Positions 5,845 through 49,342 of a stretch of 64,000 bases of DNA are shown one piece after another. Numbering within the stretch: position 1 is the first letter of the stretch; each line of letters begins with the position of its first letter. The stretch lies in the NCBI GenBank assembly GCA_016795155.1, contig JAEUIE010000054.1, forward strand, positions 1,755-65,754, read 5' to 3'. This DNA comes from Planctomycetia bacterium. Its GTDB lineage: Bacteria > Planctomycetota > Planctomycetia > Gemmatales > HRBIN36. Both the position numbers and the translations under genes were made by a program. Below the pieces are notes generated by a model. That model was not told where the DNA came from and searched no databases. It saw only the letters and a list, made by a program, of their open reading frames with translations.

Positions 5845-6071
5845 TTTTGCTTTCAAATCTCATTGCTGATTTCAATAAATATACTTCGGATACCTACCAA
5901 CCGAACCATTCCCTAATTCATTGCTCATTCAGTGGTTTCGAATACGATTCCCGTCTGATTGCAATCTTTTCAGAATTAGTGGCTTATTTTCAGGATTAGT
6001 GTGCTTAGAGCCAATGTCGAGCAAATTGCTTGATGTCTGGAATTACACTTTATCAGCAAAAGAGACCTGAC

Positions 6072-12216: not shown

Positions 12217-12272
12217 ACGTGCTGTGAGGGGCTGATCGCATCTATTTTCAACGGGATAAAGAGGAGCCAGGC

Positions 12273-12683: not shown

Positions 12684-13042
12684 AGTGACGGAGGCATGTG
12701 TAGTGCAAATCTGGGCATGAAACAAACCTGTGGGATGCAGGCGACGTTCGGTTCAATTCAAAAGGCACCAAATGGACGATGTTCCGCTGCTCAATGCGTG
12801 GGGTGACGTTGCATAACCTCTATTGCCGCGGAGATTGAGAGTGCACTTCGATGGCAGCCCGTCGCGCTAGCCGTGGAGGATCGCGCGGGCACTTAAAGTT
12901 TATCGCAATATTCGCACAGCAGTTGCACGTTTCCCCTTGCTGGTGCAGCGGACTGGTAGTTGCATCGCAGTCAATCATGTTGCAAATCTGAAATTCAGTC
13001 AATCCAAATAGAATGAAGGTGGTGCGAATCGCGAGTACTTCC

Positions 13043-13933: not shown

Positions 13934-14068
13934 CCATATCACCAGTTATCATTAAATACTGCCGCCGACTCTTCCCAGGCTGGCTGATTCTTCTACTAAT
14001 AAGTATACATTGAAGAGCCGCTGGAATTACAGACCTTTCTGCATCCCTCCTCGCTCAGGCAACACGTT

Positions 14069-14596
14069 TTGACACCTCGACGACAGAGATTACTGGAACG
14101 CGAGCAACGACGGCAATTCGTCTGGAGTATCGTTGCGAGATTATTCTGGCTATTCCTGTTTCTGGTTCACCTCTACCCGGTCTGGGTGGTCAGTGCCCGG
14201 TTTTTTCAGAACCCATCTTTTAGCAACATGGTTTCCCTGGGTGTCTTGTATGGCATCCTGACACTCTCAGCACTCAAGACACTTGATGTCGCCTGGCTGC
14301 GGATACCACTCAATCGCCGAAGCTGGCTGGGATTGCTGCTGGTGGCGATGTGGATCCATGGCGACTTTGTTGTGAAGCAGTTGCCTGATGCGTTGACGGT
14401 GGAATCTTCCATTGTGGTGGTAACGGGAGTGCTGGCTGCAGGTGGTCGATTCATCCGCCACGTATTGCAACGCACCGCTTCTCGCATCAGCCGCATTATT
14501 CAGACATTCAACTCTTACCTGGCTGAGGTACTGTTACCCAGGCCAGTGCATGTCATCCTGCCTGTCGTTGCGCCACGTGCTCCTCCGGTTCGCTAG
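14069..14596 (+). CDS. Hypothetical membrane protein
   Basis: 175 aa with 4-5 hydrophobic helices. It has a TTG start and no recognisable family. Confidence 0.4.
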   Translation: MTPRRQRLLEREQRRQFVWSIVARLFWLFLFLVHLYPVWVVSARFFQNPSFSNMVSLGVLYGILTLSALKTLDVAWLRIPLNRRSWLGLLLVAMWIHGDFVVKQLPDALTVESSIVVVTGVLAAGGRFIRHVLQRTASRISRIIQTFNSYLAEVLLPRPVHVILPVVAPRAPPVR

Positions 14597-14871
14597 TTCG
14601 TTGTTGTAACAACCCGTGACTGTCACATTGGTCGAACGGGTTCGTTCATGCCCCTTTCAGTAAGTTCGCACGAGTAACTATGCGGTGAATGGGCACGGTT
14701 AGCGTGAGTACACGCAAACCGTAGCACCCTGTCTGCATGACTTTAAGGCGAGAGTACTCAATCCTGTTGCGTGCTGACTGCTGCGCAGTGGCACACACAA
14801 GATCCTCTAGACCATGCAGGAATTCCTGCCAGGTCAATTCATTTCAGAGTCAATAACCGGAGATAACTTCC

Positions 14872-15768
14872 ATGAAACAACGGCATGCGTTTACCCTGAT
14901 CGAACTGCTGGTGGTGATTGCTATCATCGCCTTGCTGATGGCATTGCTGCTGCCAGCTGTGCAGAAAGTACGCGAAGCCGCCAACAAGATGATCTGTGCC
15001 AGCAATCTGAAGCAGATTGGCGTAGCACTGCATCATTATCACAATGATTACGGCGAATTCCCCAATAACCTGAAGAACTATCCGCAGTACAGCCCGTTCA
15101 CTGATCTGCTGCCTTACATTGAACAGGATGGCTTGTTTCAGAGATACGACAAGAGCAAAGATCCTTTCGATCCAGTGAACATGCCGGTCTCCTCCAAGGT
15201 GCTGAAGATTTACCTGTGCCCGACGATGGCGTTGTCTGAAACTCCATCACCCGGTTACGCCAGTTATGTCTGCAACCTGGGCTCCACTTACAACTGGTCG
15301 ATGTTCCCGTTTCTGGAGTTCATCTATGGCAAGCCTGATGGCGTCTTCGTTAACAGTCATCGCGTGTCATTTCGTGATATTCACGACGGCACCTCGTACA
15401 CCTTTTTCGTGGGTGAATCGAGCTACTCGCTCAAGGACTACCCTGCCCCTGGCTCCATTGGCGGGTTTACTTCGTGGTCGTTTGCCTACCCGATCACCAC
15501 TTTTGCTTCATCGTTCAACCGGATGAACCACAAGCAGCATTTCACTTCGCCGATTGCCAGCAGTGGCATGGGTTCGTTCCGCAGCGATCACCCCACTGGC
15601 TGCAATTTCCTGTTTGGCGATGGCTCGGTGCGGTTCATTACCGATTCGATCAACAGCGATGCAGTTCCCTTGCCGCTGCCGCTGGGTGGAATGAACCCGT
15701 ATGCGGGTGGCGCAGCGTATCGTGCTCTGTCAACGCGGAACAAAGGCGAACCAGTCAACCTCGATTAA
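14872..15768 (+). CDS. DUF1559 protein with a prepilin-type N-terminal cleavage/methylation domain
   Basis: The N-terminus MKQRHAFTLIELLVVIAIIALLMALLLPAVQKVREAANKMICASNLKQIG is the canonical planctomycete DUF1559 N-terminus. The C-terminus FRSDHPTGCNFLFGDGSVRFI also fits. Confidence 0.9.
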   Translation: MKQRHAFTLIELLVVIAIIALLMALLLPAVQKVREAANKMICASNLKQIGVALHHYHNDYGEFPNNLKNYPQYSPFTDLLPYIEQDGLFQRYDKSKDPFDPVNMPVSSKVLKIYLCPTMALSETPSPGYASYVCNLGSTYNWSMFPFLEFIYGKPDGVFVNSHRVSFRDIHDGTSYTFFVGESSYSLKDYPAPGSIGGFTSWSFAYPITTFASSFNRMNHKQHFTSPIASSGMGSFRSDHPTGCNFLFGDGSVRFITDSINSDAVPLPLPLGGMNPYAGGAAYRALSTRNKGEPVNLD

Positions 15769-15780
15769 CAGGAGTGCATC

Positions 15781-15930
15781 ATGAAGCATCTGATAGCCTT
15801 GTTGCTGCTGTGCACACTGCTGACAGGCTGTGGTGAAACGGAACGCCCGATGCAATCAACCGAGCAGTTCCGCCAGAGTCTGAAGGATATTGAAAAGCTG
15901 CAGCCGCATGCAGGCAAACAAAAAGTGTAA
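15781..15930 (+). CDS. Small lipoprotein (49 aa, below the ORF-track cutoff)
   Basis: MKHLIALLLLCTLLTGCGETERP has the lipobox LLTGC. The ATG lies 10 nt after the DUF1559 stop and is preceded by caggag. A strong terminator follows. Confidence 0.6.
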   Translation: MKHLIALLLLCTLLTGCGETERPMQSTEQFRQSLKDIEKLQPHAGKQKV

Positions 15931-27313: not shown

Positions 27314-28051
27314 ATGCAGGTGAAAGAGAAACCAGCCAGGCTGGAAACGCTGCGACATGCTTCTTACCAGATCATGTCCGAAGCTGTTGCTGAGCGTAAC
27401 GAACGGCTGGTACGCAATGTCGTACTGCTCGGCACACAAAGCAGAAATGGGTATCGCTACAGCCAGGCTGCGATGCAGTCAGCGATACCGCTCTATGAAA
27501 ACCGCCCGGTCTTTCTTGATCATGCTGAGGAGCATCATGCTCCGATGCGACGCCGATTGCGAGATTATGCCGGCCAGGTGCTGTCGCCCCGTTTTGAAGA
27601 AGGCAAACTGCGAGGCGACCTGCGACTGCTCGGGCCGCATACGTCCTGGCTGTTCGATCTGATGGAAGCTGCACCGCACGATATCGGCATGAGCCACGTG
27701 GTGCTGGGACGACGCAGTGCCCAGAGCCAGGAAGTGGAACACATCGAGCGGGTGGTGTCGGTAGATATCGTGGCATTCCCAGCCACCACACAATCATTTC
27801 AGGAAGGGGACAACGGTGAAGGCAGTATTCAACAACTACTGCAACAGTCATCGCTGCCAGCCTTGTTACGCACGGCTTTTATTCGTGAAGCGTTGGCGAT
27901 GCATCCGGAACCTGCCCAGTTGCTGAAGCTGCTGGAAGAATGGGCAGCGCTGCTGGATCGCGATGTGTCGCCATCTTCGTTGAAACGCACTGTTCCTGAA
28001 GGGATTAACGCCGGTGCGAAACAAGCACTGATGCGTGCAATTCGCGGGTAA
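27314..28051 (+). CDS. Prohead protease (HK97/S78-like), possibly with a C-terminal scaffold segment
   Basis: SRNGYRYSQAAMQSAIPLYENRPVFLDH...FEEGKLRGDLRLL...HDIGMSHVV fits the S78 layout with His and Ser candidates. An AGGAGG RBS lies upstream. Confidence 0.55.
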   Translation: MQVKEKPARLETLRHASYQIMSEAVAERNERLVRNVVLLGTQSRNGYRYSQAAMQSAIPLYENRPVFLDHAEEHHAPMRRRLRDYAGQVLSPRFEEGKLRGDLRLLGPHTSWLFDLMEAAPHDIGMSHVVLGRRSAQSQEVEHIERVVSVDIVAFPATTQSFQEGDNGEGSIQQLLQQSSLPALLRTAFIREALAMHPEPAQLLKLLEEWAALLDRDVSPSSLKRTVPEGINAGAKQALMRAIRG

Positions 28052-28116
28052 TGTTCCTCCACGGACTGCTGCCCGTGGTTTTTAGTTTTCGACATTTTTT
28101 ATCACAAGGAGTCATC

Positions 28117-29325
28117 ATGATTCGACAGGATTTACGAGCGCTCAGGCATTCGATGGGGCCTCGCGGGTTCTATGAATGTGTCCAGAACCTGCTCGATACG
28201 CGGGAATTGTCCCCCGACGATTTCAGCCTTCGGCAACTCTGGGAAGCCTGTGTCGGGCCAACTGCCCAGACGCTACCCACGCTGGCAGCCCGGCAACGAG
28301 TCTACGTTGCTGAGATCGATCAACTGAATGAGCCACTCAGCGAAGCTGATCTGGGAATTAACCTGTTTCAGACGGTCACGGGAGCCGTCATCGCCCGTCG
28401 GGTGATGGATGCCTACGACCAGGCAGCAGGCATTGGCGATCAACTGGTTACACTTGAACGGTCTTCCGTACGGTCGGAACGTATCCCAGGTTTCACAGCA
28501 CTACAAGGGCCACGTGAAGTAAAAGAGGGCATGCCTTACGAGGAAGCGAGCTTTGGCGACAAGTTTGTCAGCACCGTGGAGAGCAAGAAAGGCCGGCTGC
28601 TTTCCATCACGGAAGAAGCCGTGCATTTTGATCAGACGAATGAACTGCTGAGGCGTGCCGCCCGGTTGGGTGAAGCGACGCGTGCTGAGCGAGAGAAGAC
28701 GATTGTGCGGGGAGTGGTGGATGCTGATTACAACGCCACGCTGAGCACTGGTGTTTATCGCCCTTCGGGCACACTGCAGGAACTCTATCCCGATAATGCT
28801 TCCCTGCTGAATGTGATCGGGCCGGAGAACACCGCGGAAGGTTTTGACGCTGCGGTGCCACTGACTGATTGGACCTCGCTGGCTTTACCTTTGCAGTACC
28901 ACGCGGTCTATGTCAAGGATGATCGGCATGGGCCGGAAAGTGGTGAGCCGATAGCCTGGCAACCTCGCATTCTGCTGGTGCCCAAGTCGCTGGAAATCAG
29001 GGCGCTGCAGATCGTCAATGCCACACTGGTTCCCGCGACATCGGGTGGCACTGCATTTGGGGGTAATCCTCTTCGCGGCGCGTTCACCGTACTGGCTTCC
29101 GCTTATCTCGATCAAATCAGCACCAGCGATTGGTATCTGGGTGATTTCTCCCGGCAGTTCATCTGGAAGGAAATCTGGCCGGTGCAGGTGTTCCGGCAAA
29201 GTGCTCAGGATGGTGATGGTTTTGACCGCGACGTCGTGGCCCGTTTCAAAGTGCGATACTTCGGTGGCATCAATGCTCTCGATCATCGCTTTGTGCTCAA
29301 GATGATCGGGGAAGAGGAAGAGTAA
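28117..29325 (+). CDS. Major capsid protein (HK97-fold type)
   Basis: 403 aa from the ATG at 28117, with an AAGGAG RBS. Its position after the portal and protease genes, its size, and a strong stem-loop pair directly downstream are all typical of capsid genes. Confidence 0.6.
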   Translation: MIRQDLRALRHSMGPRGFYECVQNLLDTRELSPDDFSLRQLWEACVGPTAQTLPTLAARQRVYVAEIDQLNEPLSEADLGINLFQTVTGAVIARRVMDAYDQAAGIGDQLVTLERSSVRSERIPGFTALQGPREVKEGMPYEEASFGDKFVSTVESKKGRLLSITEEAVHFDQTNELLRRAARLGEATRAEREKTIVRGVVDADYNATLSTGVYRPSGTLQELYPDNASLLNVIGPENTAEGFDAAVPLTDWTSLALPLQYHAVYVKDDRHGPESGEPIAWQPRILLVPKSLEIRALQIVNATLVPATSGGTAFGGNPLRGAFTVLASAYLDQISTSDWYLGDFSRQFIWKEIWPVQVFRQSAQDGDGFDRDVVARFKVRYFGGINALDHRFVLKMIGEEEE

Positions 29326-33481: not shown

Positions 33482-33520
33482 ACCATGAAAATCCACCAGT
33501 GACTGGTGGATTTTCATGGT
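33482..33520. repeat. 39-bp perfect palindrome, copy 1
   Basis: accatgaaaatccaccagt-g-actggtggattttcatggt has 19-bp arms and lies 6 nt beyond the stop of the ATPase gene. Confidence 0.9.
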
Positions 33521-33526
33521 AAGTAT

Positions 33527-34693
33527 TTATGGCGTATTCCGCAGCCAATGCGGTGCAGCACCGGGTTTAGCGAGTTCCGCCAGGGGCACCGCTTCCACCT
33601 GCGAGCCGAGGGAATAGCGTTTGTCTCCCGGATAGACGATCAGCAGCTTGTCCAGTTTCAGATCTTCCAGGGCGATGTGCATGGAAGAAGTCAGGGTTGG
33701 TGCATCACGCCGTTTGCATTCCACGCCGATGCGTTTGCCTTTCTTGAACAGGAGCAGATCGAGTTCGGCGCCCTGGTGCGTGGCCCAGTAATAGGCTTGT
33801 TCGGGCTGCACCGCCTTGATGATCTCTTCCACCGCAAAGCCTTCCCACGATGCGCCGATCTTGGGATGCAGTTCCAGTTGATTCCGGCTTTCTATGCCCA
33901 GCAGCGCATGCAGCAGACCGCTGTCGCGAATGTAGACTTTCGGGGCTTTCACCTGTCGCTTGCTGAGGTTTTCATACCAGGCTGGCAGTTGCCTGATCAT
34001 GAATACGCCAGAGAGCAGATCGAGGTAACGGCGTACGGTGGATTCCCCAACGGCCAGGGCACGAGCCAGTTCTGCTCCGTTCCAGATCTGGGCATGGTAA
34101 TGAGCAATCATGTTCCAGAAGCGATGCAGGGTGATTGCAGGAATCGTAATGCCCAACTGGGGCAGATCGCGTTCGAGAAAAGTCTGAAGAAACTGTTTGC
34201 GCCAAATCACGGAATCGGTTTCTCTACGGGCAGCGTAAGAAAGAGGAAAACCGCCACGCAGCCAAAGGCGATCCATAGCGGATGATCCCAGATCAGCAAG
34301 ACGTAGTCCTTCGAGGTAGACCGTTTCCAGACGACCGGCTAGCGATTCAGACGATTGCTTCAGCAATTCAGGTGATGCGGACCCCAGAATCAGGAACCGG
34401 GCCGGCAGGGGCTTGCGGTCAGCCAGCACTCGCAACAGGCGAAACAGCTCCGGGCGATGCTGGATTTCATCCAGCACCACCAGGCCCTTCAGTGGACGCA
34501 GTGCCGTATCGGGTTCGGAAAGACGAGCCAGGCTGACAGGGTCTTCCAGGTCAAAATAATTGGCGGAACGGGGGGAAACCAGTTGCCTTGCGAGGGTAGT
34601 CTTGCCACACTGGCGCGGGCCGAGAATGGCCACCACCCGGCTGCGACGCAGGGCAGCTTTGAGCAGTGCCATATCTGTGGGACGATTAATCAT
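33527..34693 (-). CDS. AAA+ ATPase with a DUF4143 domain (COG1373 type)
   Basis: Walker A is ILGPRQCGKTTLARQL and Walker B is LVVLDEIQ. The C-terminal region with WEGFAVEE is typical of DUF4143 proteins. The ATG at 34693 is preferred over the GTG at 34720, which lies inside the palindrome. Confidence 0.8.
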   Translation of the reverse strand: MINRPTDMALLKAALRRSRVVAILGPRQCGKTTLARQLVSPRSANYFDLEDPVSLARLSEPDTALRPLKGLVVLDEIQHRPELFRLLRVLADRKPLPARFLILGSASPELLKQSSESLAGRLETVYLEGLRLADLGSSAMDRLWLRGGFPLSYAARRETDSVIWRKQFLQTFLERDLPQLGITIPAITLHRFWNMIAHYHAQIWNGAELARALAVGESTVRRYLDLLSGVFMIRQLPAWYENLSKRQVKAPKVYIRDSGLLHALLGIESRNQLELHPKIGASWEGFAVEEIIKAVQPEQAYYWATHQGAELDLLLFKKGKRIGVECKRRDAPTLTSSMHIALEDLKLDKLLIVYPGDKRYSLGSQVEAVPLAELAKPGAAPHWLRNTP

Positions 34694-34705
34694 GACAAAT
34701 GATAT

Positions 34706-34744
34706 ACCATGAAATTCCACCAGTCAATGGTGGATTTTCATGGT
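34706..34744. repeat. 39-bp palindrome, copy 2
   Basis: accatgaaattccacca-gtcaa-tggtggattttcatggt has one arm mismatch. It lies between the mfd stop (34754) and the ATPase start. Confidence 0.9.
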
Positions 34745-34753
34745 ACTGTAAAA

Positions 34754-37700: not shown

Positions 37701-38161
37701 GGCACCGGCTGCATCATCGATGTGATGGATGTCAGGAAGAGGGGTGAGGGGACAGAAGTCAGGGGTGAGGAGGCAGTATTCTCCCCTCTCCCCTCTGGGG
37801 AGAGGGGTTGGGGGTGAGGGGATTCTATCTGAGCGGATGTTTGAAGCCCCAGGAGCGACTTCAAGACCTTGAGCCTGCCTCCAGGTTCATCGCGATCAGG
37901 CACTTCGACAGGGCGACAGCCCAGAAAGGTTTCCAGATCGTCGCTCCAGACATCAATATCGGTGGCATGTGCCAGGACGATGAGCGTGGGACCCGCATTC
38001 ATTTCCGCCAGGGAAGCAGCAGACAGAGCAGCGGAAGAACCCCAGGCGCCATCGATGGTGCCTGCCCGGTTTTTTCTGAGCGCAGCCAACACATCAGCGA
38101 AGCCAGGGTGTTCCCTGAGCAGCGCTGGCAATTGTGTTAGCGACGTAATGCGTGATGCCAT
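34754..38161 (-). CDS. mfd: Transcription-repair coupling factor Mfd
   Basis: 1135 aa. The CarD/RNAP-interacting region is GIARYKGL. Helicase motif I is GDVGYGKTEVALRAAF, motif II is VIIDEEQRFGV, and the C-terminal side carries QLRGRVGR and a TRG-like region. Confidence 0.95.
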   Translation of the reverse strand: MASRITSLTQLPALLREHPGFADVLAALRKNRAGTIDGAWGSSAALSAASLAEMNAGPTLIVLAHATDIDVWSDDLETFLGCRPVEVPDRDEPGGRLKVLKSLLGLQTSAQIESPHPQPLSPEGRGENTASSPLTSVPSPLFLTSITSMMQPVPSPAALAAQSRELVKDDEVRLESLITWLVEGGYTRTEVVELPGEFSKRGGILDIYPADADRPVRLEFFGDIIDSIRRFAPETQRSQEAIDHVNVTVFTQQGLSDTVPFTRYLPAGAIVILVEPADLREQAKVFLERVDDIKGLFSIDATFKHLIAHPSVHITALPTISAEATCHLQIESVERFSGDAAKVKEELATLSGEIVIACPSKGEQQRLSELLNAASTAPTKEESSKSKKKNAPSTSLSTQDSALRTDSSGLSTLLLPGHIRSGFRLVNSQLTVLGAQELFRRDAAATSHRISVRKYETRAIESFLDLAEDDLVVHVNHGIARYKGLQVLDTKGQLSEHMLLEFAAGTKMYVPTDKIDLVQKYVGGGNTAPELSKLGGTTWAKRKEKVREAVLDLAAEMVDLQAQRSTLPGFSYPADSVWMNEFESAFPYEETPDQHTAIGDVKKDLEHPHPMDRLLCGDVGYGKTEVALRAAFKAVDAGKQVAVLVPTTVLAEQHYRTFSTRLAAFPFKVACLSRFRRPGEQKEMVKQLNAGQLDIAVGTHRLLSKDVTFKDLGLVIIDEEQRFGVEHKEKLKKLRSQVHVLTMTATPIPRTLHMSLLGIRDISNLETPPQGRMPIETRICRFDPELVRHAIRRELAREGQIYFVHNRVFDIEAVAHRLQQIVPEARILIGHGQMNERELEQVMIQFVKHQADILLATTIIESGLDIPNTNTIFIDDADRYGLADLHQLRGRVGRYKHRAYCYLLLDPNRKLTDIAAKRLKAIEEFRELGAGFKIALRDLEIRGAGNILGAEQSGHIASVGYELYCQLLEEAVRRAKKQPVRQMIEVTVELPWPAFLPASYVEGQKAKIEVYRRLGRVKSLDRLADFQDELADRYGPLPEPVTNLIKMHELRILAAKWSVAHIRLEGKDLVLEYRQRNRIDKLAALSGPVPELPNQSRIPGNRLRVVDDETAYYRLYLDEEKTPEGMYGCLKGLFS
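36926..36980 (-). repeat. Short tandem gtgctgagtcctg-type repeats inside mfd (low-complexity linker)
   Basis: agtgctgagtcctgaagaatcagtcctgagtgctgagtcctgcgtgctgagtgaag encodes STSLSTQDSALRTDSSGLST within a Lys/Ser-rich insert. Confidence 0.7.
37741..37821 (-). repeat. GGGGAGAGGGG/GGGGTGAGGGG dispersed repeat copy, in frame within mfd
   Basis: ctcccctctcccctctggggagaggggttgggggtgagggg, with flanking ggggtgagg half-copies, is translated as ESPHPQPLSPEGRGENTASSPLTSVPSPL. Confidence 0.85.
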
Positions 38162-40646: not shown

Positions 40647-42125
40647 ATGTCTGCTGTTGCTGATGCTCCCAAAACCAAACGGCCCACTGTTCACCTGCCC
40701 CAGCGCAAGTTGCTGATCGATGGCAAACACCACGATGCCATGTCGGGGAAGACTTTTCCCACCGTGAACCCGGCTACCGAAGAAAAGATTGCCGATGTGC
40801 CCTATGCTGGCAAGGAAGATGTCGATCTGGCTGTGAAAGCTGCAACGCACGCTTTCAACGAAGGTGCCTGGCCCAAGATGGATGCCCGCGACCGGGGTCG
40901 GCTGCTTTACAAGCTCGCTGACCTTATTGAAAAGAACATCGACGACCTGGCTGCTCTCGAATCGCTCGACAATGGCAAGCCCATTCGTGAATCGCGGCAT
41001 GGCGACTTGCCTCTGGTCATCGACTGTCTGCGCTATTACGCTGGCTGGGCTGACAAGATTCAGGGCGAAGTGGTGCCTGTCCGTGGAGGCAACTTCTGTT
41101 ACACCAAGCGCGAGCCGGTGGGCGTTGTCGGGCAGATCATCCCATGGAACTTCCCCATGCTGATGACTGCCTGGAAATGGGGTCCTGCCCTGGCTGCTGG
41201 TTGCACCATCGTCATGAAGCCGGCTGAACAGACTCCACTGAGTTGTCTGCGCATGGGCGAACTGGCCATGGAAGCAGGCTTTCCACCTGGTGTCATCAAC
41301 ATCCTGACTGGCTTTGGCGACACTGGCTCGGCCCTGGTGCAACACCCAGGCGTCGACAAGATCGCCTTCACCGGCCACACCGATACCGCCAAGATCATCA
41401 TGAAGGAATCAGCTGCCACGCTCAAGCGGCTGACTTTCGAACTGGGCGGCAAGAGCCCGAACATTGTCTTTGCTGATGCTGACCTGAACGAAGCAGCAGC
41501 GGGCGCGTTCCTGGGCATCTACCTCAACCAGGGGCAGTGCTGCTGTGCAGGCTCTCGCCTGTTCGTGGAAGAGAAGGCTCACGATCAGGTGGTGGATATT
41601 CTGCAGAAGAAGGCCAAAGCTCATCGCGTGGGCGATCCGTTCGATATCGCCACCGAGCAAGGCCCGCAGATTGATAAGGATCAGTTCGACAAGATCATGC
41701 ACTACATCGACGCTGGCAGGAAGCAGGGCGCCAAGTGCCTGGCGGGCGGCGAACGGCAAGGGGACAAAGGCTTCTTCATCAAGCCGACCATCTTTGCTGA
41801 TGCGAAGGATGATATGGACATCATGAAGGAAGAAATCTTCGGCCCGGTGCTGAGCATCACACGGTTCAAGGATGTGAGCGAAGTGATCAAGCGTGCCAAC
41901 GCCACCAACTACGGTTTAGCCGCAGCAGTGTGGACGAAGGACATCAACAAGGCTCACCGCATTGCTGATGCAGTGCGAGCGGGCACTGTCTGGATCAACT
42001 GTTACGACGCCTTCGACGCCGCCGCCCCATTCGGTGGTTTCAAACAAAGCGGCCAAGGCCGCGAGCTGGGCGCCAAGGGCCTGGATGCGTATACCGAGAC
42101 GAAGACGGTGGTGATTAAGTTGTAA
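40647..42125 (+). CDS. NAD(P)-dependent aldehyde dehydrogenase
   Basis: The motifs are [17 protein letters not shown], the catalytic FELGGKSP and [11 protein letters not shown] (Glu and Cys), and EEIFGPV. Confidence 0.95.
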
Positions 42126-42135
42126 CACTCTTACT

Positions 42136-42174
42136 CCCCTCTCCCTCCCGGGGAGAGGGGCCGGGGGTGAGGGG
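42136..42174. repeat. GGGGAGAGGGG/GGGGTGAGGGG dispersed repeat copy
   Basis: cccctctccctcccggggagaggggccgggggtgagggg lies immediately after the aldehyde dehydrogenase stop. Confidence 0.9.
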
Positions 42175-42219
42175 TATCCTTTTTCGTATTAAACCCGATG
42201 AGAACCTACGCCTGCATTG

Positions 42220-42320
42220 CAGCCCCGAAAGGGGCGACCAGCCAGTAGCCAGGGGTGACCGAAGGGAACCCCTGGTAAGAGTTCCAAAAAGAATTCTCCA
42301 GGCACCCTGAAGGGGTGTGC
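42220..42320 (-). repeat. Hairpin-rich about 100-bp repeat, inverted copy (left flank of the RM gene)
   Basis: Its reverse complement aligns with 46151..46249. Identical blocks are caccccttcagggtgcc, ccaggggttcccttcggtcacccctggcta and gtcgcccctttcggggctg. Confidence 0.9.
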
Positions 42321-42384
42321 ATCTCCGGACTCTAGTCTGCTCCATATAGCTTTGCACTCCTGTTTCAGTTACAATTCGCCGCCT

Positions 42385-45300
42385 ATGAAACAATCTACTG
42401 TTCCAACAATCAACGAAGTCGACTTCTGCGGAAAGATGGCGACTGCAGCGACTACATTCTTTGCTAACAACCCAGGTCGATGCCCATTTATAGAAGCTCG
42501 GATTGAAGGTTTAGGCAGCAGTAGAAGCAAAAACGCACGAAAAGATCTGCGTTTCTATGGCCCAAATCAAAAAATCCTACTCACTGGTGAAGTAAAGTTA
42601 CCAGGTAACACCAGCGCGTTCGATTCAAAGGTGGTAAAGGATGCTCACGACAAAGCAGAAGAGGCGATAGTCCAGTATTTCTTTACTTGGGATGTTAACA
42701 CCTTTGTGCTATGGGATCGTTCCCAATGGAAAAAGCCGCTTCTGGAACGACGAATGAAGGTCTGGCAATTACGGCTTAACCTAGCAAGCCCGCAAGAAGT
42801 CGCCCGAACCGAATCACTTGACCACATTGAAAAACGATTTCTTCCGGATCTTCTACTTGATCTATCCGACATAGTATCTGGCCTCAAGCGTGACTGGGCC
42901 TTGCCTCAGGACGAAGTCTTCCTGCGTTCATTGGAAAGTCATCTTGAATGGCCAGTGGCACTTCTGCGATTACACCTTCACCAGAAAACAGAGACTGATA
43001 AAGGATTCGATTTACGACTCCAAGAGTGGATGGTTACCAACGATCTTCAGGTAAGACGAACCCAGCCGGATGAATGGAGAAAAGCGCTCGATACTGCTGC
43101 GCGATCGCTAGCCTATATCTGGACGAATCGACTTATTTTCTACAAAGCGCTGCGCGCACGTTTTCCGGAATTGCCCAAACTCGAACTTGGGTCCAACATC
43201 AAGAACAAGCAGCAAGCATTGAGAAGACTTGATGATCTGTTTACGAAAGCTGCAAAACGCAGTGGCGATTATGAATCGTTGCTGTTTCCCGAAACACATG
43301 ACTGGGCCAATGAATTGGTTTTTGTGCCCGAGGGTTCAGTTGATGCCTGGCGTGGTTTTCTTCGAGGTATTGAGAGTGTCGACTTCCATGAAGTCTCATC
43401 AGATGTTATCGGGCTCATCTTTCAAAAGCTGGTCAGCCCTGAAACCCGTCATCGCTATGGACAGCATTTTACCGGTCCTGATCCAGTCGATTTGATCAAC
43501 TCGTTTTGCATCCGTAAAGCCGATGCAAAAGTTCTTGATCCCGCCTGTGGTTCTGGTTCATTCCTCGTGCGCGCTTATTACCGTAAGCGTGCTATGAACT
43601 CCAGACGCTCTCACGTGGACATGCTGGGTGATCTCTTCGGATGTGACGTTTCTTTGTATCCGGCTCATCTGGCAACGCTCAATCTGGCAGCCCGTGAAAT
43701 CAACGACGAAGCGAATTATCCGAGGATTGAACGGCGTGACTTTTTCGACATCAAGGCAGGGAAGCCTTTCTGTCACATCCCTGAACAACCAAGTGGTGAA
43801 CAGGTTGCTATTAAACTGCCTGAACTCGATGCTGTCGTCGGCAATCCCCCTTATGTTCGACAAGAGAAGATTGCCAAGAAAGATAAGCCAAAGTATGCCA
43901 AGGTTGTTGATGACGCATTCAAGGGCACTGAACTATCCGGGCGGGCTGACTTACATTGTTATTTCTGGCCCCATGCAGCCAGGTTTTTGAAAGAAGGGGC
44001 AGCATTCGGATTCCTGACCAGCGGGCAATGGCTGGATGTTGATTATGGATTTGATTTACAACGATGGATTCTCAAGCATTTCAAGATTATTGCCATTATG
44101 GAGAGTTCCACCGAACGATGGTTTCCCGATGCACGGGTGAAGACTTGTATTACGATTCTTGAACGATGTAGTGATGAGGCAGATCGTCGGAAGAACACTG
44201 TACGCTTCGTCCGTTTCGAGAAACCCCTGGCCGATATCATTGGCAAACCTGCAACGGGTGGTGTTGGTGAAGAAGCGGAAGACCAGGAGCGAATCCGACA
44301 ACAGGCCGTTGATCGAGTTCGTGATGCTATCGAACGGTCAACCCGCAATTGTCACGATGACCGGTGGCGAATACTGGTTAAACGACAAGGAGACTTATGG
44401 GATGATGGGGTTAGAGTCGGGGCTATCCTCAAGGATGTTCCAGTCGACGAATCAGATGAAGAGGATGATACAGAACAGAACAGCGAGAGTTTATCCAAGT
44501 ATGCCATCGCAGCCGAAGGCGATTATGCTGCAGGAAAGTGGGGCCGTTACCTGCGTGCTCCTGATTTGTATTTCGAAATCATGGAGAGAATTAAGGGCCG
44601 CCTTGTACCGTTGGGACAAATAGTGGACATTCGATTTGGTGTGAAGACCGGCTGCGACGCGTTCTTTATGCCCAAGGATGTTACCGATTACTTACTTGAA
44701 CAGTACCCCAAAGAGAACGTGTTCCTGGATGCTGTTGGAATATCTCGAAAGAAAGTATCCAATGGCTCATTAAAGATCATTGAAGATGGCGACGGAACCT
44801 ATCATCCAATCGAACCCCAATTTATTAGGCCTGAAGTTCACAGCTTGATGAAGGTAGATAGACCAGTTGTTAGAGAGAACGATCTTGATCGCGTTGTGCT
44901 ATTGGTCAAATCTCCCTTATCGGCGATCAAAGGCACGTTTGCCTATCGATATGTGAAATATGGAGAGCAAGCGACCTACGCCAGTACGAAGAGCAAGGCT
45001 GTGCCTGTACCTGAACGTTCGACCTGTGCTGCTCGTGATCCTTGGTACGACCTAACCAAACTTGTCAATCCTGGGTTTGCATTCTGGCCTAAATCTCAAC
45101 AATATCGGCACATAATTCCTGCAAATCCGAAAGAGTTAGTGTGCAACTGTAATCTTTATGATTTAGGGGCGAGAGAGTTGAACAAGCAAGATCAACAAGT
45201 GCTTGTGGCCATAATTAATAGCACGCTGATTGGTTTGTTCAAAACTTTCTATGGTCGGTATGCAGGCACAGAAGGCAATCTCAAAACCGAAGTAATCGAC

Positions 45301-46134
45301 GTGAATTTGATCGAAGTTCCTGATCCGCGCGGCGTTGATAACCGTATCGGGGAGAGACTGAAAGCAGCTCTGAGGTCAATATCAAGTCGAGTCGTTGAAG
45401 GCTTGGTAGAGGAAGAACTAAAAGAATGCCATACATATCAACGCGCAATTGAATTATCCAAACGACCGATCACACTTCCTGAAGAACTTAAACAATCTGA
45501 CCGTCGTGAACTAGATGATGCTGTTTTTGAACTGCTTGGTGTAGCTGACCAAAAAGAACGATCCGCCCTTGTTGATCGCCTGTATGAAGAAACGACTTTG
45601 CATTTCCGCGATGTACGAGTCACTGAAATCCAGAAGATGGAGGACCGGCGTAAAGGCGGTAGCACCAGATTTGGCATCACCGATCAAGCTGCCGACGTCT
45701 GGGATGCATTAGACCTTTCCGATATGACTCCATTGACTGAGTGGGTTACCGATCAGGCAGCCGATGAATGGGAAGTTATCAATATTCCAAGTGAGCGCCC
45801 GGTCTATTTATCAGAAGATACACTTTTCGATGCCGAGACAGTCTATTTCGGCAGGGGAAAACGGCAGCACATGGTCTGTCAATCACGAGGCGAAGCCGAG
45901 CTTGTCGCTCGAATGGCTGATCTTGGGGTAAGTGATGATGTAACTGTTCCTAAGCGTCATGAAGATGCCCAGAAACTATTGAAGCGATTGAATGACAGGC
46001 ATTTAGTAGCAGTGAAGCGACTCAGTGAACTCGCAGCTAGTCGTAGCGGTGACAGTGCAATGCAGGATGATGTTTTTAAGCTGCTTGAGCGTTGGTATGT
46101 GCTCGGGAAACCTACGAAAGATAAAAACAGATAA
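42385..46134 (+). CDS. Type IIG restriction-modification enzyme (PD-(D/E)xK nuclease + gamma-class N6-adenine MTase + specificity region), MmeI/Eco57I-like
   Basis: The N-terminus DLRFYGPNQKILLTGEVK is a D-X14-E-X-K motif (compare MmeI DLFWPG..LIEMK). MTase motif I is VLDPACGSGSFLV and motif IV is VVGNPPYV. FGVKTGCDAFF is TaqI_C-like. It is 1249 aa from the ATG at 42385. Confidence 0.75.
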   Translation: MKQSTVPTINEVDFCGKMATAATTFFANNPGRCPFIEARIEGLGSSRSKNARKDLRFYGPNQKILLTGEVKLPGNTSAFDSKVVKDAHDKAEEAIVQYFFTWDVNTFVLWDRSQWKKPLLERRMKVWQLRLNLASPQEVARTESLDHIEKRFLPDLLLDLSDIVSGLKRDWALPQDEVFLRSLESHLEWPVALLRLHLHQKTETDKGFDLRLQEWMVTNDLQVRRTQPDEWRKALDTAARSLAYIWTNRLIFYKALRARFPELPKLELGSNIKNKQQALRRLDDLFTKAAKRSGDYESLLFPETHDWANELVFVPEGSVDAWRGFLRGIESVDFHEVSSDVIGLIFQKLVSPETRHRYGQHFTGPDPVDLINSFCIRKADAKVLDPACGSGSFLVRAYYRKRAMNSRRSHVDMLGDLFGCDVSLYPAHLATLNLAAREINDEANYPRIERRDFFDIKAGKPFCHIPEQPSGEQVAIKLPELDAVVGNPPYVRQEKIAKKDKPKYAKVVDDAFKGTELSGRADLHCYFWPHAARFLKEGAAFGFLTSGQWLDVDYGFDLQRWILKHFKIIAIMESSTERWFPDARVKTCITILERCSDEADRRKNTVRFVRFEKPLADIIGKPATGGVGEEAEDQERIRQQAVDRVRDAIERSTRNCHDDRWRILVKRQGDLWDDGVRVGAILKDVPVDESDEEDDTEQNSESLSKYAIAAEGDYAAGKWGRYLRAPDLYFEIMERIKGRLVPLGQIVDIRFGVKTGCDAFFMPKDVTDYLLEQYPKENVFLDAVGISRKKVSNGSLKIIEDGDGTYHPIEPQFIRPEVHSLMKVDRPVVRENDLDRVVLLVKSPLSAIKGTFAYRYVKYGEQATYASTKSKAVPVPERSTCAARDPWYDLTKLVNPGFAFWPKSQQYRHIIPANPKELVCNCNLYDLGARELNKQDQQVLVAIINSTLIGLFKTFYGRYAGTEGNLKTEVIDVNLIEVPDPRGVDNRIGERLKAALRSISSRVVEGLVEEELKECHTYQRAIELSKRPITLPEELKQSDRRELDDAVFELLGVADQKERSALVDRLYEETTLHFRDVRVTEIQKMEDRRKGGSTRFGITDQAADVWDALDLSDMTPLTEWVTDQAADEWEVINIPSERPVYLSEDTLFDAETVYFGRGKRQHMVCQSRGEAELVARMADLGVSDDVTVPKRHEDAQKLLKRLNDRHLVAVKRLSELAASRSGDSAMQDDVFKLLERWYVLGKPTKDKNR

Positions 46135-46150
46135 TACAAGTTTCAGTTTC

Positions 46151-46249
46151 AGCACCCCTTCAGGGTGCCGGGAGGATTTTTTCTGTTCCTTTTCCAGGGG
46201 TTCCCTTCGGTCACCCCTGGCTAACATCGGGTCGCCCCTTTCGGGGCTG
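46151..46249 (+). repeat. Hairpin-rich about 100-bp repeat, direct copy (right flank of the RM gene)
   Basis: It contains three local hairpins: cacccc-ttca-gggtg, ccagggg...cccctgg and gcccc-tttc-ggggc. It begins 17 nt after the RM stop. Confidence 0.9.
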
Positions 46250-46260
46250 ATGCTTGCCCT

Positions 46261-46289
46261 GGGTGCCACCGTTTGCGTACTCGCTAACG
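46261..46289 (+). repeat. 29-nt box, copy 1
   Basis: gggtgccaccgtttgcgtactcgctaacg is identical to 47030..47058. Confidence 0.9.
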
Positions 46290-46360
46290 ATGCGGCATGC
46301 CCGCTTGATCCTCTCCTTATTTCAGGGTACGATAACTTGAGAAATCAAGAGACAACACTT

Positions 46361-46570
46361 ATGGCCGCTAGAAGCAAAAAGACTGATCCCAGGCTCGCCA
46401 AAATCTATGCCGATGTGCGTCGCAATTTCACTGCTGCGGATTTGCAGAAATATACCGAAGTCACACCGACAGTGCCTCTTCTGAGCATCATTGAGGAGTT
46501 GGAAGACATCCAGTCCAAGCACGATGCCAAAAAAAGTCGAACCGGCAAACGGCGCAGGAAAACAGCGTAG
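46361..46570 (+). CDS. Putative antitoxin (69 aa, basic C-terminus)
   Basis: MAARSKKTDPRLAKIYADVRRNF... lies 15 nt upstream of a RelE/ParE-like small ORF. The call rests on context only. Confidence 0.4.
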   Translation: MAARSKKTDPRLAKIYADVRRNFTAADLQKYTEVTPTVPLLSIIEELEDIQSKHDAKKSRTGKRRRKTA

Positions 46571-46585
46571 CTTTGGAGCACCTTC

Positions 46586-46873
46586 ATGTTTTATGTGGAT
46601 GCTTCGGCAGAATTGCGTAAACGTATCAAGCACTTGCATCAGATTGCCAACGAACAAGATCGTGGCGAATTGTTTATCAGTGCTTTCAAGGAAATATACT
46701 CTCGTCTGCATGACAATGCGTTTGAATTCGGCGAACCACTTTATTCTCTTCCAATTCTCAGACTTCAAATCCGTACCGGTTCAGTTCTTCCGATTGTCTT
46801 AACCTATAGTGTTTCAAGTGATCATCCAATCGTTGTAATTAAAAGTGTTGAACTCCTTGATCATAAACGATAA
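46586..46873 (+). CDS. Putative RelE/ParE-superfamily toxin
   Basis: 95 aa. FEFGEPLYSLPILRLQIRTGSVLPIVLTYSVSSDHPIVVIKSVELL resembles the ParE/RelE C-terminal beta-sheet pattern. Confidence 0.45.
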   Translation: MFYVDASAELRKRIKHLHQIANEQDRGELFISAFKEIYSRLHDNAFEFGEPLYSLPILRLQIRTGSVLPIVLTYSVSSDHPIVVIKSVELLDHKR

Positions 46874-46885
46874 TTCGATGCTCAG

Positions 46886-47025
46886 CCTCCCCATGCCAAT
46901 ACGCCCTCTTCACCCTGATGAACTGGAAGCCTGGCTCACCATGCGTGAACGGCTGTGGCCTGATTCGCCGCGAGGGGATTTGGCGGAAGAACAGCGGGAG
47001 ATCATCGCCCAGCCGGAGCGGAATG
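46886..47025 (+). pseudogene. Duplicated 5' fragment (44 codons) of the AAC(6')-like gene
   Basis: The 140 bp are about 94% identical to 47858..47997, including the RBS region and MPIRPLHPDELEAWLTMRERLWPDSPRGDLAEEQREIIAQPERN. Similarity ends abruptly at the 29-nt box. Confidence 0.85.
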
Positions 47026-47029
47026 CACC

Positions 47030-47058
47030 GGGTGCCACCGTTTGCGTACTCGCTAACG
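47030..47058 (+). repeat. 29-nt box, copy 2
   Basis: gggtgccaccgtttgcgtactcgctaacg is identical to 46261..46289. Confidence 0.9.
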
Positions 47059-47154: not shown

Positions 47155-47394
47155 ATGACCATCAAAGTCGTCTATGAAAATGGCGTGTTTCGTCCGCTGA
47201 AGCCTATTCGTGATGTCAAGGAAGGAACGGAAGCAGAAGTAACCGTTATGAAGCCTCCTCGTCCTCAGCCCACACCGGAGGAAGTCATTGAACGTTTGCT
47301 TCGCATCGCTGACATGCCGTTGGAAGGTGGCGGCAAGCCATTTAGCGGACAGGATCATGATAAAATCCTTTACGGTGATCCTCATCAATCATGA
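47155..47394 (+). CDS. DUF104 (AF2212-like) antitoxin
   Basis: MTIKVVYENGVFRPLKPIRDVKEGTEAEVTV is the canonical DUF104 N-terminus. A GAAGGAGG RBS lies upstream, and the stop overlaps the PIN toxin start. Confidence 0.8.
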   Translation: MTIKVVYENGVFRPLKPIRDVKEGTEAEVTVMKPPRPQPTPEEVIERLLRIADMPLEGGGKPFSGQDHDKILYGDPHQS

Positions 47395-47786
47395 TTTTCG
47401 TTGACACGGGCGCATGGTACGCTTTACTCGTTAATGATGATCCTGATCATCAAAAAGCTCGAGCCTGGGTTGCCGCAAATAGAGAGCGACTGGTTTTGAC
47501 TGACTACATTCTTGACGAAACTTTGACACTGCTGCGAGCACGTGGTCAAAAGAAACAGGCTATTACGTTTGGTTATGACATTCTTGATTTAGAGGTTGCT
47601 GACTTCTATCTTGTGTCCCTCGAAGACATCGAATCAGCCTGGGATATCTTCCAAAAGTATTCTGATAAAGAATGGAGCTTCACCGATTGCACCAGCAAAG
47701 TTGCCATGGAACGATTGGGGATTACTACAGCCTTTGCTTTCGATCAACATTTCCGTCAATTTGGGAATGTCGTGGTTGTACCGTAA
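47391..47786 (+). CDS. vapC: PIN-domain toxin VapC
   Basis: MIFVDTGAWYALLVNDDPDHQKA...LTDYILDETLTLL...SFTDCTS carries the PIN acidic residues. It overlaps the antitoxin by ATGA. Confidence 0.85.
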   Translation: MIFVDTGAWYALLVNDDPDHQKARAWVAANRERLVLTDYILDETLTLLRARGQKKQAITFGYDILDLEVADFYLVSLEDIESAWDIFQKYSDKEWSFTDCTSKVAMERLGITTAFAFDQHFRQFGNVVVVP

Positions 47787-47864
47787 AATTTGCAGACAAA
47801 CCATCGTTCCTTCTGGTATACAGCACAAGATAGAACACTTCCGTCACTAACACTGACCCTCCCC

Positions 47865-48323
47865 ATGCCAATACGCCCACTTCACCCGGATGAACTGGAA
47901 GCCTGGCTCGTCATGCGGGAACGGCTTTGGCCTGATTCGCCGCGAGGGGACTTGGCAGAAGAACAGCGGGAGATCATCGCCCAGCCGGAGCGGAATGGTG
48001 TGCTAGTGGCAGAGTTACAGGGTACGTTGATTGGGTTCGTGGAAGTGTCGCTCCGCGACTGGGCGGAAGGTTGCGAGACACGGCCGGTAGGTTACCTGGA
48101 AGCGTGGTTTGTTGAGCCTGAGCATCGTCGCAGTGGCGTGGGCCGACATTTGGTGGAGGCAGCGGAGAACTGGGCACGTGAGCGGGGCTGCACCGAGATG
48201 GGGTCGGATGCTGAAGTGTGGAATGAAACCAGCCACGCTGCCCATCGGGCCTTGGGGTTTGGAGAAGTCTGCCGGGTGGTGGCGTATAGCAAGAAGATTG
48301 CAGGGGAAATACCTTCCTCCTGA
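47865..48323 (+). CDS. AAC(6')-I-like aminoglycoside N-acetyltransferase (GNAT)
   Basis: LRERLWPDSP..., IGFVEVSLRDWAEGCETRPVGYLEAWFVEPEHRRSGVGRHLVEAAENWARERGCTEMGSDAEVWNETSHAAHRALGFGE is collinear with AAC(6')-Iy/Iz-type enzymes as I remember them. Confidence 0.7.
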   Translation: MPIRPLHPDELEAWLVMRERLWPDSPRGDLAEEQREIIAQPERNGVLVAELQGTLIGFVEVSLRDWAEGCETRPVGYLEAWFVEPEHRRSGVGRHLVEAAENWARERGCTEMGSDAEVWNETSHAAHRALGFGEVCRVVAYSKKIAGEIPSS

Positions 48324-48354
48324 CGAACGTGTATGACGATGCCTATCCTTACTG

Positions 48355-48396
48355 TTCCGTCACCCCTAGCTACCATCTGGCCGCCCCTCCGGGGCT
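48355..48396 (+). repeat. Partial third copy of the hairpin-rich repeat
   Basis: ttccgtcacccctagctaccatctggccgcccctccggggct corresponds to ttcggtcacccctggctaacatcgggtcgcccctttcggggct at 46205..46247. Confidence 0.75.
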
Positions 48397-48417
48397 TTCA
48401 CCAGATAGAATAACCCC

Positions 48418-49125: not shown

Positions 49126-49131
49126 ACATCT

Positions 49132-49275
49132 CCCCTCTCCCCCTTGGGGAGAGGGGCCGGGGGTGAGGGGTTTCATGCATGGCGAAGCCCTTCGTTCTAC
49201 GCGATTATTAGATGAAGGGCTGCGCCACTTATTGATAACCCCTCACCCTAACCCTCTCCCCGGGAGGGAGAGGGG
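49132..49275. repeat. Inverted pair of GGGGAGAGGGG/GGGGTGAGGGG repeats (MITE-like unit)
   Basis: 49132..49170 (cccctctcccccttggggagaggggccgggggtgagggg) and 49239..49275 (its reverse complement, diverged) flank a 68-bp spacer containing gaagccc...gaagggctgc complementarity. Confidence 0.8.
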
Positions 49276-49342
49276 ACATTAGAAAAAAAGTTTGGAACAT
49301 GCAGCGCAGGAATTGTGCTTTGGTGGCTACTATATCTCAGAC

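Follow-up and report, generated by a model that had tools for sequence, protein, structure and literature searches.

Within a 64-kb window of DNA from a Planctomycetia bacterium (64,000 nucleotides of contig JAEUIE010000054.1, assembly GCA_016795155.1, the whole stretch analysed here), a solitary Type IIG restriction-modification (RM) gene lies between two inverted copies of a ~110-nt, three-hairpin repeat to which we gave the name E. The two arms are, with high confidence, members of a repeat family that belongs to Y1 transposases. Pairs of E elsewhere bracket transposase genes or derivatives of them, and the RM gene is therefore in the place that the cargo takes in such a pair. As to how the gene came between the arms, our leading reading, with a probability of roughly 0.4, is that the E-RM-E unit moved, or is movable, as a cassette; insertion of the gene into a pre-existing pair of repeats is nearly as likely. 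Coordinates are positions in the window, and L-numbers (L001 and so on) designate comparison loci from genomes and metagenomes.

The inverted arms and the gene between them

The features of the unit are as follows.

42212..42320, plus strand: left arm, copy E1 (covariance model 95.4 bits, E=2.7e-21; RNA fold z=-4.8), made up of hairpin 1 GCCCCGAAAGGGGC, core TAGCCAGGGGTGACCGAAGGGAACCCCTGG, an A-rich linker and hairpin 3 GCACCCTGAAGGGGTGC
42385..46134, plus strand: solitary Type IIG RM gene, 1249 aa, with a PD-ExK nuclease, a helical spacer, a gamma-class N6-adenine methyltransferase and a conserved C-terminal half
42544..42597, plus strand: nuclease motif D54-x14-E69-V-K71, invariant in 27 homologues (strands 54-58 and 64-70, pLDDT ~90)
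43537..43557, plus strand: methyltransferase motif I, DPACGSG, residues 385-391, invariant in 27 homologues
43843..43854, plus strand: methyltransferase motif IV, NPPY, residues 487-490, invariant in 27 homologues
46151..46256, minus strand: right arm, inverted copy E2 (covariance model 99.8 bits; minus-strand fold z=-5.6)
48352..48397, minus strand: relic E3, hairpin 1 and the left half of the core (17.5 bits, E=0.003, filters off), in the spacer between the GNAT and racemase genes

An earlier note on this DNA, made from the letters alone, had reported an inverted repeat flanking the gene, and local alignment of 300-nt flanks bears this out. Positions 42220-42317 match the reverse complement of 46153-46249 in 84 of 98 columns (86%), with a score of 123; 200 shuffles scored 17.4 on average and no more than 27. 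A repeat search resolved the arms into two pairs, 42220-42278/46191-46249 (59 nt, 90% complementary) and 42265-42317/46153-46205 (53 nt, 75% complementary), and a weak extension (GCAT) places their outer limits at about 42212 and 46256. There are three blocks of identity between the arms, as had been claimed, but their lengths are 20, 30 and 17 nt rather than 17, 30 and 19 nt. One intact gene lies between the arms, with 65-68 nt separating the end of the left arm from its ATG (42385) and 17-19 nt separating its stop (46134) from the start of the right arm, in agreement with the spacing of about 65 and 17 nt first given. The three identical blocks, with up to three mismatches allowed, occur at just these two places in the 64 kb, and a covariance-model search of positions 30000-60000 with filters off added the truncated copy E3 at about 48352-48397. 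With two full copies and one relic in the searches of the window, the repeat is not locally abundant; genome-wide abundance had been named beforehand as a possible ground for flanking by chance.

Both arms fold into three hairpins, and both tails are directed towards the RM gene. Hairpin 3 forms the tail of E1 and points at the gene from the left; the tail of E2 points at it from the right and, in a plus-strand reading, presents a hairpin and a T-rich run 17 nt past the RM stop. Read outward from the cargo, each arm is hairpin 3 followed by a T-rich run, and a terminator scan flagged the reverse strand of E1 as terminator-like (a hairpin and a T-run). A sigma-70 promoter scan returned zero sites, fewer than in shuffled sequence, a result that is uninformative for planctomycetes.

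The gene between the arms is, as the earlier note had it, a solitary fusion of a nuclease and a methyltransferase. Its product, which is 100% identical to an NCBI protein record from a 'Planctomycetia bacterium' metagenome-assembled genome (MAG), matches the PADLOC model REase_MTase_IIG (PDLC03606) over residues 62-622 with E=8e-45. In an alignment of 27 full-length homologues (56-76% identity), residues D54, E69, V70 and K71 and the motifs DPACGSG and NPPY are invariant throughout. An AlphaFold model of residues 1-640 places the nuclease residues in an N-terminal domain (11-128; pLDDT, the per-residue confidence, ~90) arranged alpha-beta-beta-beta-alpha-beta-beta, which is the topology expected for an alpha/beta nuclease. 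Foldseek found no significant structural match of this domain to a solved nuclease; the methylase part alone was matched, to PacII M, CamA, BseCI and BrxX. The PADLOC model, the invariant nuclease and methylase motifs and the predicted N-terminal fold thus identify the protein as a Type IIG enzyme, and its predicted action, whatever its origin, is to mark self DNA with m6A and to cut unmodified DNA. The gene is solitary in the window, with no BREX partner genes present, and the similarity of its product to BREX PglX/BrxX is weak and at the level of the methylase.

The description 'MmeI-like', also offered at the outset, applies just at the methylase. There were four Pfam-A hits altogether, with N6_Mtase, Eco57I and MmeI_Mtase (39 bits) above cut-offs, and no MmeI-specific domain other than MmeI_Mtase was among them. 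MmeI (5hr4) aligned to the profile of the 27 homologues with E=2e-5, the match covering the helical and methylase part (residues 321-540). Like MmeI and other Type IIG/IIL enzymes, the protein combines an N-terminal PD-ExK nuclease and a gamma-class N6-adenine methylase in a single chain, but it is 1249 aa long compared with 919 aa for MmeI, and it falls outside the MmeI family in the strict sense, in which the N-terminal, helical, target recognition and C-terminal domains are shared beyond the methylase. The extra C-terminal length is uncharacterised, as had been noted: Foldseek of a C-terminal model (pLDDT 71) against the PDB gave no match, and the C-terminal ~600 aa are without a solved relative. 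It is not, however, peculiar to this gene. The C-terminal half is conserved over a large and widespread family of ~1250-aa proteins and is therefore a family trait, not a local oddity.

The RM gene is compositionally foreign. What had been a visual impression of AT-richness is borne out by its GC content of 0.474; among 241 sliding 3.75-kb windows (mean 0.528, sd 0.017) none is lower. GC at its third codon positions (GC3) is 0.434, and the adjoining ALDH gene has a GC content of 0.575 and a GC3 of 0.69.

Repeat E and its association with Y1 transposases

Tail-to-tail pairs of E enclose an open reading frame (ORF) of ~146-162 aa in L008 (Brevifollis), L010 (Akkermansiaceae) and L035 (a metagenome contig). 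The L008 and L010 ORFs match Pfam Y1_Tnp with E values of 1e-23 to 1e-26 and the NCBIfam IS200/IS605 model with 68 bits (cut-off 55), and these transposase genes are separated from E by 5-32 nt on either side. Among solved proteins, the TnpA proteins of ISDra2 and IS608 are closest to the L008 transposase. The L035 transposase, whose gene overlaps E by ~15 nt at its 3' end, was identified by tblastn alone, as was the transposase encoded between two direct-orientation copies of E in L033/L012 (Phycisphaerales). Among loci with two copies of E, seven are tail to tail, two direct and none head to head (p ~0.001 under random orientation, by a binomial estimate). Inverted pairs with short spacers are found in Brevifollis, in L002 (57 nt) and L009 (80 nt), and the L009 spacer is ~74% identical to the leader and first codons (ATGCC...) of the L008 transposase gene. 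This resemblance indicates that L009 is a deletion derivative, similar to a miniature inverted-repeat transposable element (MITE). In L018, from a Gemmatales MAG, a GGDEF gene of 343 aa lies between the two copies of E, at distances of 90 and 78 nt from them.

A side observation on the Brevifollis pairs is that those in L008, L009 and L002 consist of two E subtypes, one with the standard core and one with an extended apical stem (e.g. GGGGTGCAGCGAGCGTAAGCGAGCGGAACCCC), which recalls the Y and Z REP types in the BIMEs of E. coli.

We searched for a 23-nt core of E, AGGGGTGACCGAAGGGAACCCCT, in one genome per species and in metagenomes, and found it at 18 loci in six genomes of the Planctomycetes-Verrucomicrobia-Chlamydiae (PVC) superphylum and at 17 metagenome loci. 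The six genomes are two Gemmatales MAGs, Brevifollis gellanilyticus, two Phycisphaerae MAGs and one Akkermansiaceae MAG, with 3-7 exact-core copies per genome where these could be counted; a search for the exact core biases which copies of E are retrieved. The aligned copies from Gemmatales, Phycisphaerae, Brevifollis and Akkermansiaceae all have the same 30-nt core, TAGCCAGGGGTGACCGAAGGGAACCCCTGG, and their hairpins 1 and 3 vary in sequence with their pairing kept; hairpin 1, for example, is GCCCCGAAAGGGGC, AACCACGGAGTGGTT or GCGCCGAAGGTGC. A covariance model built from the aligned copies gave 36 hits in 27 sources, 32 of them distinct. Across these 32 copies 90.7% of cells are paired and nine pairs have changed on both sides, a covariation score that was reached by none of 500 shuffles and that slid-register controls fell far short of. 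From IS608 and TnpA-REP it is known that HUH enzymes recognise hairpins in single-stranded DNA, and such recognition would account for the covariation of the E stems.

The hits to the covariance model are dispersed as singles, short dimers and pairs. Many copies are single and intergenic, beside unrelated housekeeping genes, and we observed no consistent position or orientation of E relative to genes. Rfam gave zero hits at gathering score over the whole 64 kb, a permissive Rfam scan of 42100-42400 produced chance-level matches alone (E >=0.39), and a literature search with the core sequence string found no paper in the library searched.

We also considered whether E is primarily a functional structured RNA, for example a small RNA or an untranslated region (UTR) module, that is carried by various mobile elements, in which case the RM gene would just have two such RNA genes beside it. 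This would be compatible with the other readings of the locus. Several observations speak for an RNA role. The strand reading from hairpin 1 to hairpin 3 folds better than its complement (z -4.8/-5.6 compared with -1.8/-3.1) and tolerates G-U pairs; the core, which has a tandem G-A internal loop and is identical across lineages, is better conserved than the transposases of those lineages (30-47% identical); and E also occurs inside a MITE. Strand-specific hairpins with G-T wobbles are, however, equally expected for single-stranded DNA read by HUH enzymes; E has no Rfam family, no consistent placement relative to genes and no promoter consensus that we could find, and the bias of the exact-core search bears on the conservation argument. 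We regard a primary RNA role as improbable. A related idea, that E is a 3'-end or 3'-UTR element because each arm appeared to follow a gene of the same orientation, was rejected: the 148-aa minus-strand ORF to the right of E2 (46322-46768) is spurious, and the real genes there are on the plus strand.

The MITE in question occurs at six Phycisphaerales loci from genome and metagenome sequences (L003, L006, L007, L015, L029 and L041), where E lies inside a 161-163-nt element with terminal repeats GGCTCTGTTGAAA...TTTCAACARAGCC and 9-bp target-site duplications that are perfect in four of the six copies.

The flanking of Y1 (HUH) transposase genes by E pairs is an arrangement that has been published. 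In TIRtrons, Y1 HUH transposase genes (TIRYT) are flanked by inverted repeats of a longer, non-REP kind (Di Nocera et al. 2013, PMC3733652), some of which have the common motif GGGGWSAS (PMC3733652). REPtrons have the same organisation with repetitive extragenic palindromes (REPs) around RAYT genes (Quentin et al. 2018, PMC6006769). In both kinds of system the repeats are also dispersed singly and as dimers (PMC3733652, PMC6006769). Planctomycetes and the PVC superphylum are named among the hosts of such systems (PMC3733652, PMC6006769). Repeat E resembles both: its pairs flank Y1 genes in three lineages, it also occurs as singles and short-spacer dimers, and its hairpins covary. The E core GGGGTGAC fits the GGGGWSAS motif of TIRtrons, and, like GTAG-type REPs, E has a TAG 'foot' before the core hairpin. 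It differs in being ~110 nt long with three hairpins and a core identical across two phyla, and the E-associated transposases differ from RAYTs in scoring as IS200-type in NCBIfam. The pair in the window differs further in that it holds a 3.75-kb RM gene and no transposase; the unit thus uses repeats of the TIRtron kind but is itself no TIRtron.

Other known systems share parts of this arrangement. REPINs, two inverted REPs with a short spacer that are mobilised by RAYT (Bertels and Rainey; PMC3337134), are likewise inverted doublets of hairpin repeats, and L002 and L009 look alike to them. The window pair is not a REPIN, since its 3.8-kb spacer with a gene means that it cannot fold into one hairpin. 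IS200/IS605 elements such as IS608 and ISDra2 encode the TnpA proteins closest to the E-adjacent transposases, and the direct pair in L033 has their canonical arrangement; most E pairs, however, are inverted, and the window is without a transposase. Canonical IS200/IS605 elements have no terminal inverted repeats.

Origin of the unit

We compared relatives for the presence or absence of the unit, as the earlier note had advised, and found that two close relatives, L024 and L046, lack both E and the RM gene and carry other DNA instead. In L024 (ALDH 97% identical in amino acids, 90.6% in nucleotides), a 242-aa membrane-protein gene lies between the ALDH gene and a pair of genes for 69-aa and 95-aa proteins that the window also has. 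BLAST homology between L024 and the window breaks off at the ALDH stop (42124) and picks up again at 46299, or, by eye, from ~46247, so that the outer end of E2 is within a few nt, by eye, of where weak similarity resumes. L046 (97.7% nt) shares sequence with the window from 46295 rightwards and has different sequence on the left. L025-L027 (ALDH 91%) have other genes at the site, and L028, from a Gemmatales MAG (ALDH 89%), has a Type III-like RM pair, a ResIII helicase and an N6_N4 methylase (11561-15834), directly after the ALDH gene. In none of five relatives was E found downstream of the ALDH orthologue. The different DNA at the site in each relative indicates a slot with rapid gene turnover in which E-RM-E is specific to the lineage of the window, and defence genes appear to have landed repeatedly in the 3' flank of ALDH.

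The RM gene is placed within a fast-changing islet of defence and toxin-antitoxin (TA) genes. To its right, a 145-nt direct repeat (46881-47025 and 47853-47997, 93% identical) represents the duplicated 5' part of a GNAT gene, whose true start is at 47866 and whose truncated copy starts at 46894. Between the two copies lies a TA module (47155-47786), consisting of an AF2212-like antitoxin gene (47155-47394) and a PIN toxin gene (47391-47786). In L046 the GNAT gene is intact and directly follows the 95-aa gene, indicating that the TA module inserted with a ~145-bp target duplication.

In the cassette reading, the RM gene would sit in the cargo position of a non-autonomous derivative of the E/transposase element. 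A Y1 transposase encoded elsewhere would recognise the hairpins in single-stranded DNA and move or copy the unit in trans, and the inward tails, each a hairpin and then a T-rich run when read outward, may serve as terminators that insulate the cargo. The observations in favour of this reading are the tight fit of the RM ORF between the tails (65 and 17 nt), which is like that of the transposase gene in autonomous units; the geometry shared with other E pairs, together with the deletion derivatives and the GGDEF gene in L018; and the foreign composition of the RM gene and its absence, jointly with both arms, from L024 and L046. The earlier note's suggestion of a mobilisable cassette thus gains from the fact that the arms belong to a repeat family bracketing Y1 transposases and deletion derivatives, but the eight places examined around homologues of the RM gene, all of them without E, stand on the other side.

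Those eight places (L019/L020, L021, L022, L023, L047/L048, L049/L050 and L051) belong to a set of observations that weigh against a cassette. In each of them the RM gene is solitary in unrelated housekeeping surroundings, with no E nearby, and the RM family therefore usually travels without E. No second copy of E-RM-E is known, and tblastn with two E-associated transposases found no transposase gene in the 64-kb window. A clean empty site is lacking, the relatives carrying other DNA in its place, and the left breakpoint relative to L024 is the ALDH stop, 94 nt outside E1, such that the differing segment includes a GC-rich palindromic repeat. The arms are 86% identical with diverged linkers, and a target-site duplication is missing from the outer ends of the pair, where the flanks CTACGCCT and TTGCCCTG are unlike; Y1 enzymes are not expected to make one. 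The Phycisphaerales MITE is a mobilisation route for E other than the Y1 transposase. Canonical IS200/IS605 single-strand excision needs both ends on one strand, and in tail-to-tail arms the structured strands are on opposite DNA strands, which is a misfit with such excision; L033 alone is direct. Finally, the published view of REPtrons is that they do not transpose as a unit (PMC6006769).

The flank of one of these homologues, in L051, contains a significant repeat, which proved to be a domain common to the proteins of neighbouring genes, not E. Neither E nor a close RM homologue was found on viral contigs or plasmids. The closest homologue (76% identity, L019/L020) adjoins a gene for a bona fide RAYT of 225 aa (NCBIfam 82 bits, cut-off 80). 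L019 has five copies of a 21-nt REP, AAACGGTGTCAGGAACCGTTT (noted positions 5119-5174, 5884-5896 and 9802-9849), all inside the RAYT-RM block of the 15.8-kb locus, and two of these, inverted, flank the RM homologue. Given that the REPs are confined to the RAYT-RM block, the L019 RM gene sits inside a REPtron. L019 is thus a second, independent link of this RM family to the hairpin repeats of Y1 enzymes, and it is compatible with a cassette or with insertion.

The strongest rival to the cassette reading, and one that we take seriously at odds well short of even, holds that a dimer of E with a 57-80-nt spacer, or a hot spot marked by E, was present first downstream of ALDH, and that a horizontally acquired RM gene integrated into the spacer by a non-Y1 mechanism, the bracketing being a by-product and the unit itself immobile. 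Dimers with such spacers exist (L002 and L009), and the inner flanks of the window pair sum to 82 nt. The genes downstream of ALDH differ in every relative, including the Type III RM pair in L028; the arrival of the neighbouring TA module by a 145-bp target duplication implies that other insertion routes are active in the islet; and RM homologues move without E elsewhere. Variable genes also occur beside an E tail without a second E: L017 and L001, both from Gemmatales MAGs, have orthologous copies of E and differ by 2.1 kb just after the tail (L017 3282-5371 compared with L001 2929-3469), the L017 insert coding for a protein with AAA (RuvB_N) and Mrr_cat nuclease domains and for a 249-aa protein, a defence-like indel. 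The position of the closest homologue among unrelated REP/RAYT repeats suggests that clusters of hairpin repeats readily accept incoming genes. Several points count against this rival: no dimer of E was found at the site in any relative examined, no insertion signature (duplication or integrase) was found at the inner junctions, illegitimate insertion is unlikely to leave a mere 17 nt between the stop and the repeat tail, and the window has the geometry of the units that carry a transposase gene.

Two independent insertions of single E copies around a resident RM gene, perhaps kept as terminators and inverted by chance, are unlikely. It is true that many copies of E are single and intergenic, that E in reverse resembles an intrinsic terminator, and that a third, decayed copy lies 2 kb further on. 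However, the copy number of E is low (3-7 exact-core copies per genome where countable), the only two full copies in 64 kb are those on either side of this gene, tail-to-tail orientation accounts for seven of the nine two-copy loci and head-to-head for none, and the RM gene and both arms are missing together in relatives.

The earlier note had also raised the possibility of an invertible segment, in which the inverted repeats would switch the RM gene on and off as a phase-variable defence. Arms that are 86% identical with a 30-nt identical block could in principle support rare homologous inversion, but we consider a switch highly improbable. The ORFs scanned at 28-60 kb include neither an invertase nor a recombinase, the RM gene contains no homopolymers of at least 7 nt or simple-repeat tracts, and an inverted variant was not retrieved. 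The arms enclose the entire gene and its 65-nt leader, and inversion could alter expression only with a promoter beyond the arms; the same pairs elsewhere hold transposase genes and empty spacers, unlike a switch.

Inverted repeats around RM genes, as well as TIRtron and REPtron repeats, are known already. Furuta, Abe and Kobayashi (2010, PMC2853133) described RM units bracketed by 26-65-bp imperfect inverted repeats, including a Type IIG gene, proposed that such an RM unit is a non-autonomous transposon with its transposase in trans, and also described insertion with long target duplication. The window likewise has an RM gene between imperfect inverted repeats, and a long target duplication is seen here for the neighbouring TA module. 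The best cases of 2010 have 8-bp target duplications, clean empty sites and repeats specific to the unit; the window unit is without these, and its repeats are instead a dispersed family tied to a Y1 transposase. What appears to be new is the combination: the assignment of RM-flanking repeats to a Y1 family, pairs with a cargo other than a transposase, and a core identical in two phyla.

REP/TIR systems (TIR, terminal inverted repeat) are usually regarded as domesticated and cargo-free, and we know of no description of a cargo other than a transposase in TIRtron or REPtron repeat pairs. The present pair suggests that such repeats are able to hold cargo. More broadly, and with considerable doubt, tail-to-tail E pairs could be a general gene-cassette vehicle of the PVC superphylum that holds a Y1 transposase, nothing, a signalling gene or a Type IIG gene, with the transposase acting in trans and E as a structured module, in single-stranded DNA or RNA, conserved across phyla. 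If so, REP/TIR systems would be a route of defence-gene exchange, and the L019 homologue would make the partnership a recurrent one; if a repeat pair was no more than the place where the RM gene came to land, this would be an ordinary defence islet of modest interest. The movement of solitary RM genes between genomes is largely unexplained, and the inverted-repeat RM units of 2010 had no transposase identified. Here the repeats are tied to an IS200-like Y1 HUH transposase, and their assignment to that family turns the 'mobilisable cassette' into a testable claim, which would become notable if mobility were shown. The identity of the core across Planctomycetota and Verrucomicrobiota, while the hairpins covary and the transposases are 30-47% identical, points to constraint on the core.

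Other repeats and genes around the unit

A second family of repeats, different from E, is represented between the ALDH stop and E1.

42133..42178, no strand assigned: GC-rich palindromic repeat, CCCCTCTCCC...GGGGAGAGGGG...GGGGGTGAGGGG

This copy falls in the segment that is absent from L024. Intergenic members of the family are found in the window at 37780-37825, 42133-42178, 49129-49174 and 49239-49276, and also in L001, L017, L018 and L028. In L018 they lie outside both E arms, and in L017 inverted copies (3260-3297 and 5372-5409) bracket the 2.1-kb insert that is missing from L001.

A 35-nt direct repeat, TGCCCTGGGTGCCACCGTTTGCGTACTCGCTAACG (94% identical), abuts the outer end of E2 at 46255-46289 and recurs at 47024-47058 as the left border of the TA insertion; it may represent either an operator or a cassette end common to the two. 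Between these positions are the small plus-strand genes 46364-46570 (69 aa) and 46586-46873 (95 aa), which are kept in L024 and L046 and are arranged like a toxin-antitoxin pair, and for which no Pfam or PADLOC match was found.

Another single gene in the window is bracketed by repeats. It encodes an AAA_14/DUF4143 ATPase (33527-34720, minus strand), and 40-nt near-perfect palindromes, ACCATGAAAATCCACCAGTGACTGGTGGATTTTCATGGTA (93-95% identical), lie at both of its ends (33482-33521 and 34706-34745).

Two kinds of phage-like gene may be remnants of prophages or gene-transfer agents near copies of E. The window has a Phage_capsid_4 gene at 28051-29325, and in L001 and L017 a large conserved ORF beside E, on its upstream side, is portal-like by eye. 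Lastly, a 45-nt direct repeat (89% identical) is present at 1873-1917 and 3001-3045, with a spacing of 1128 nt.

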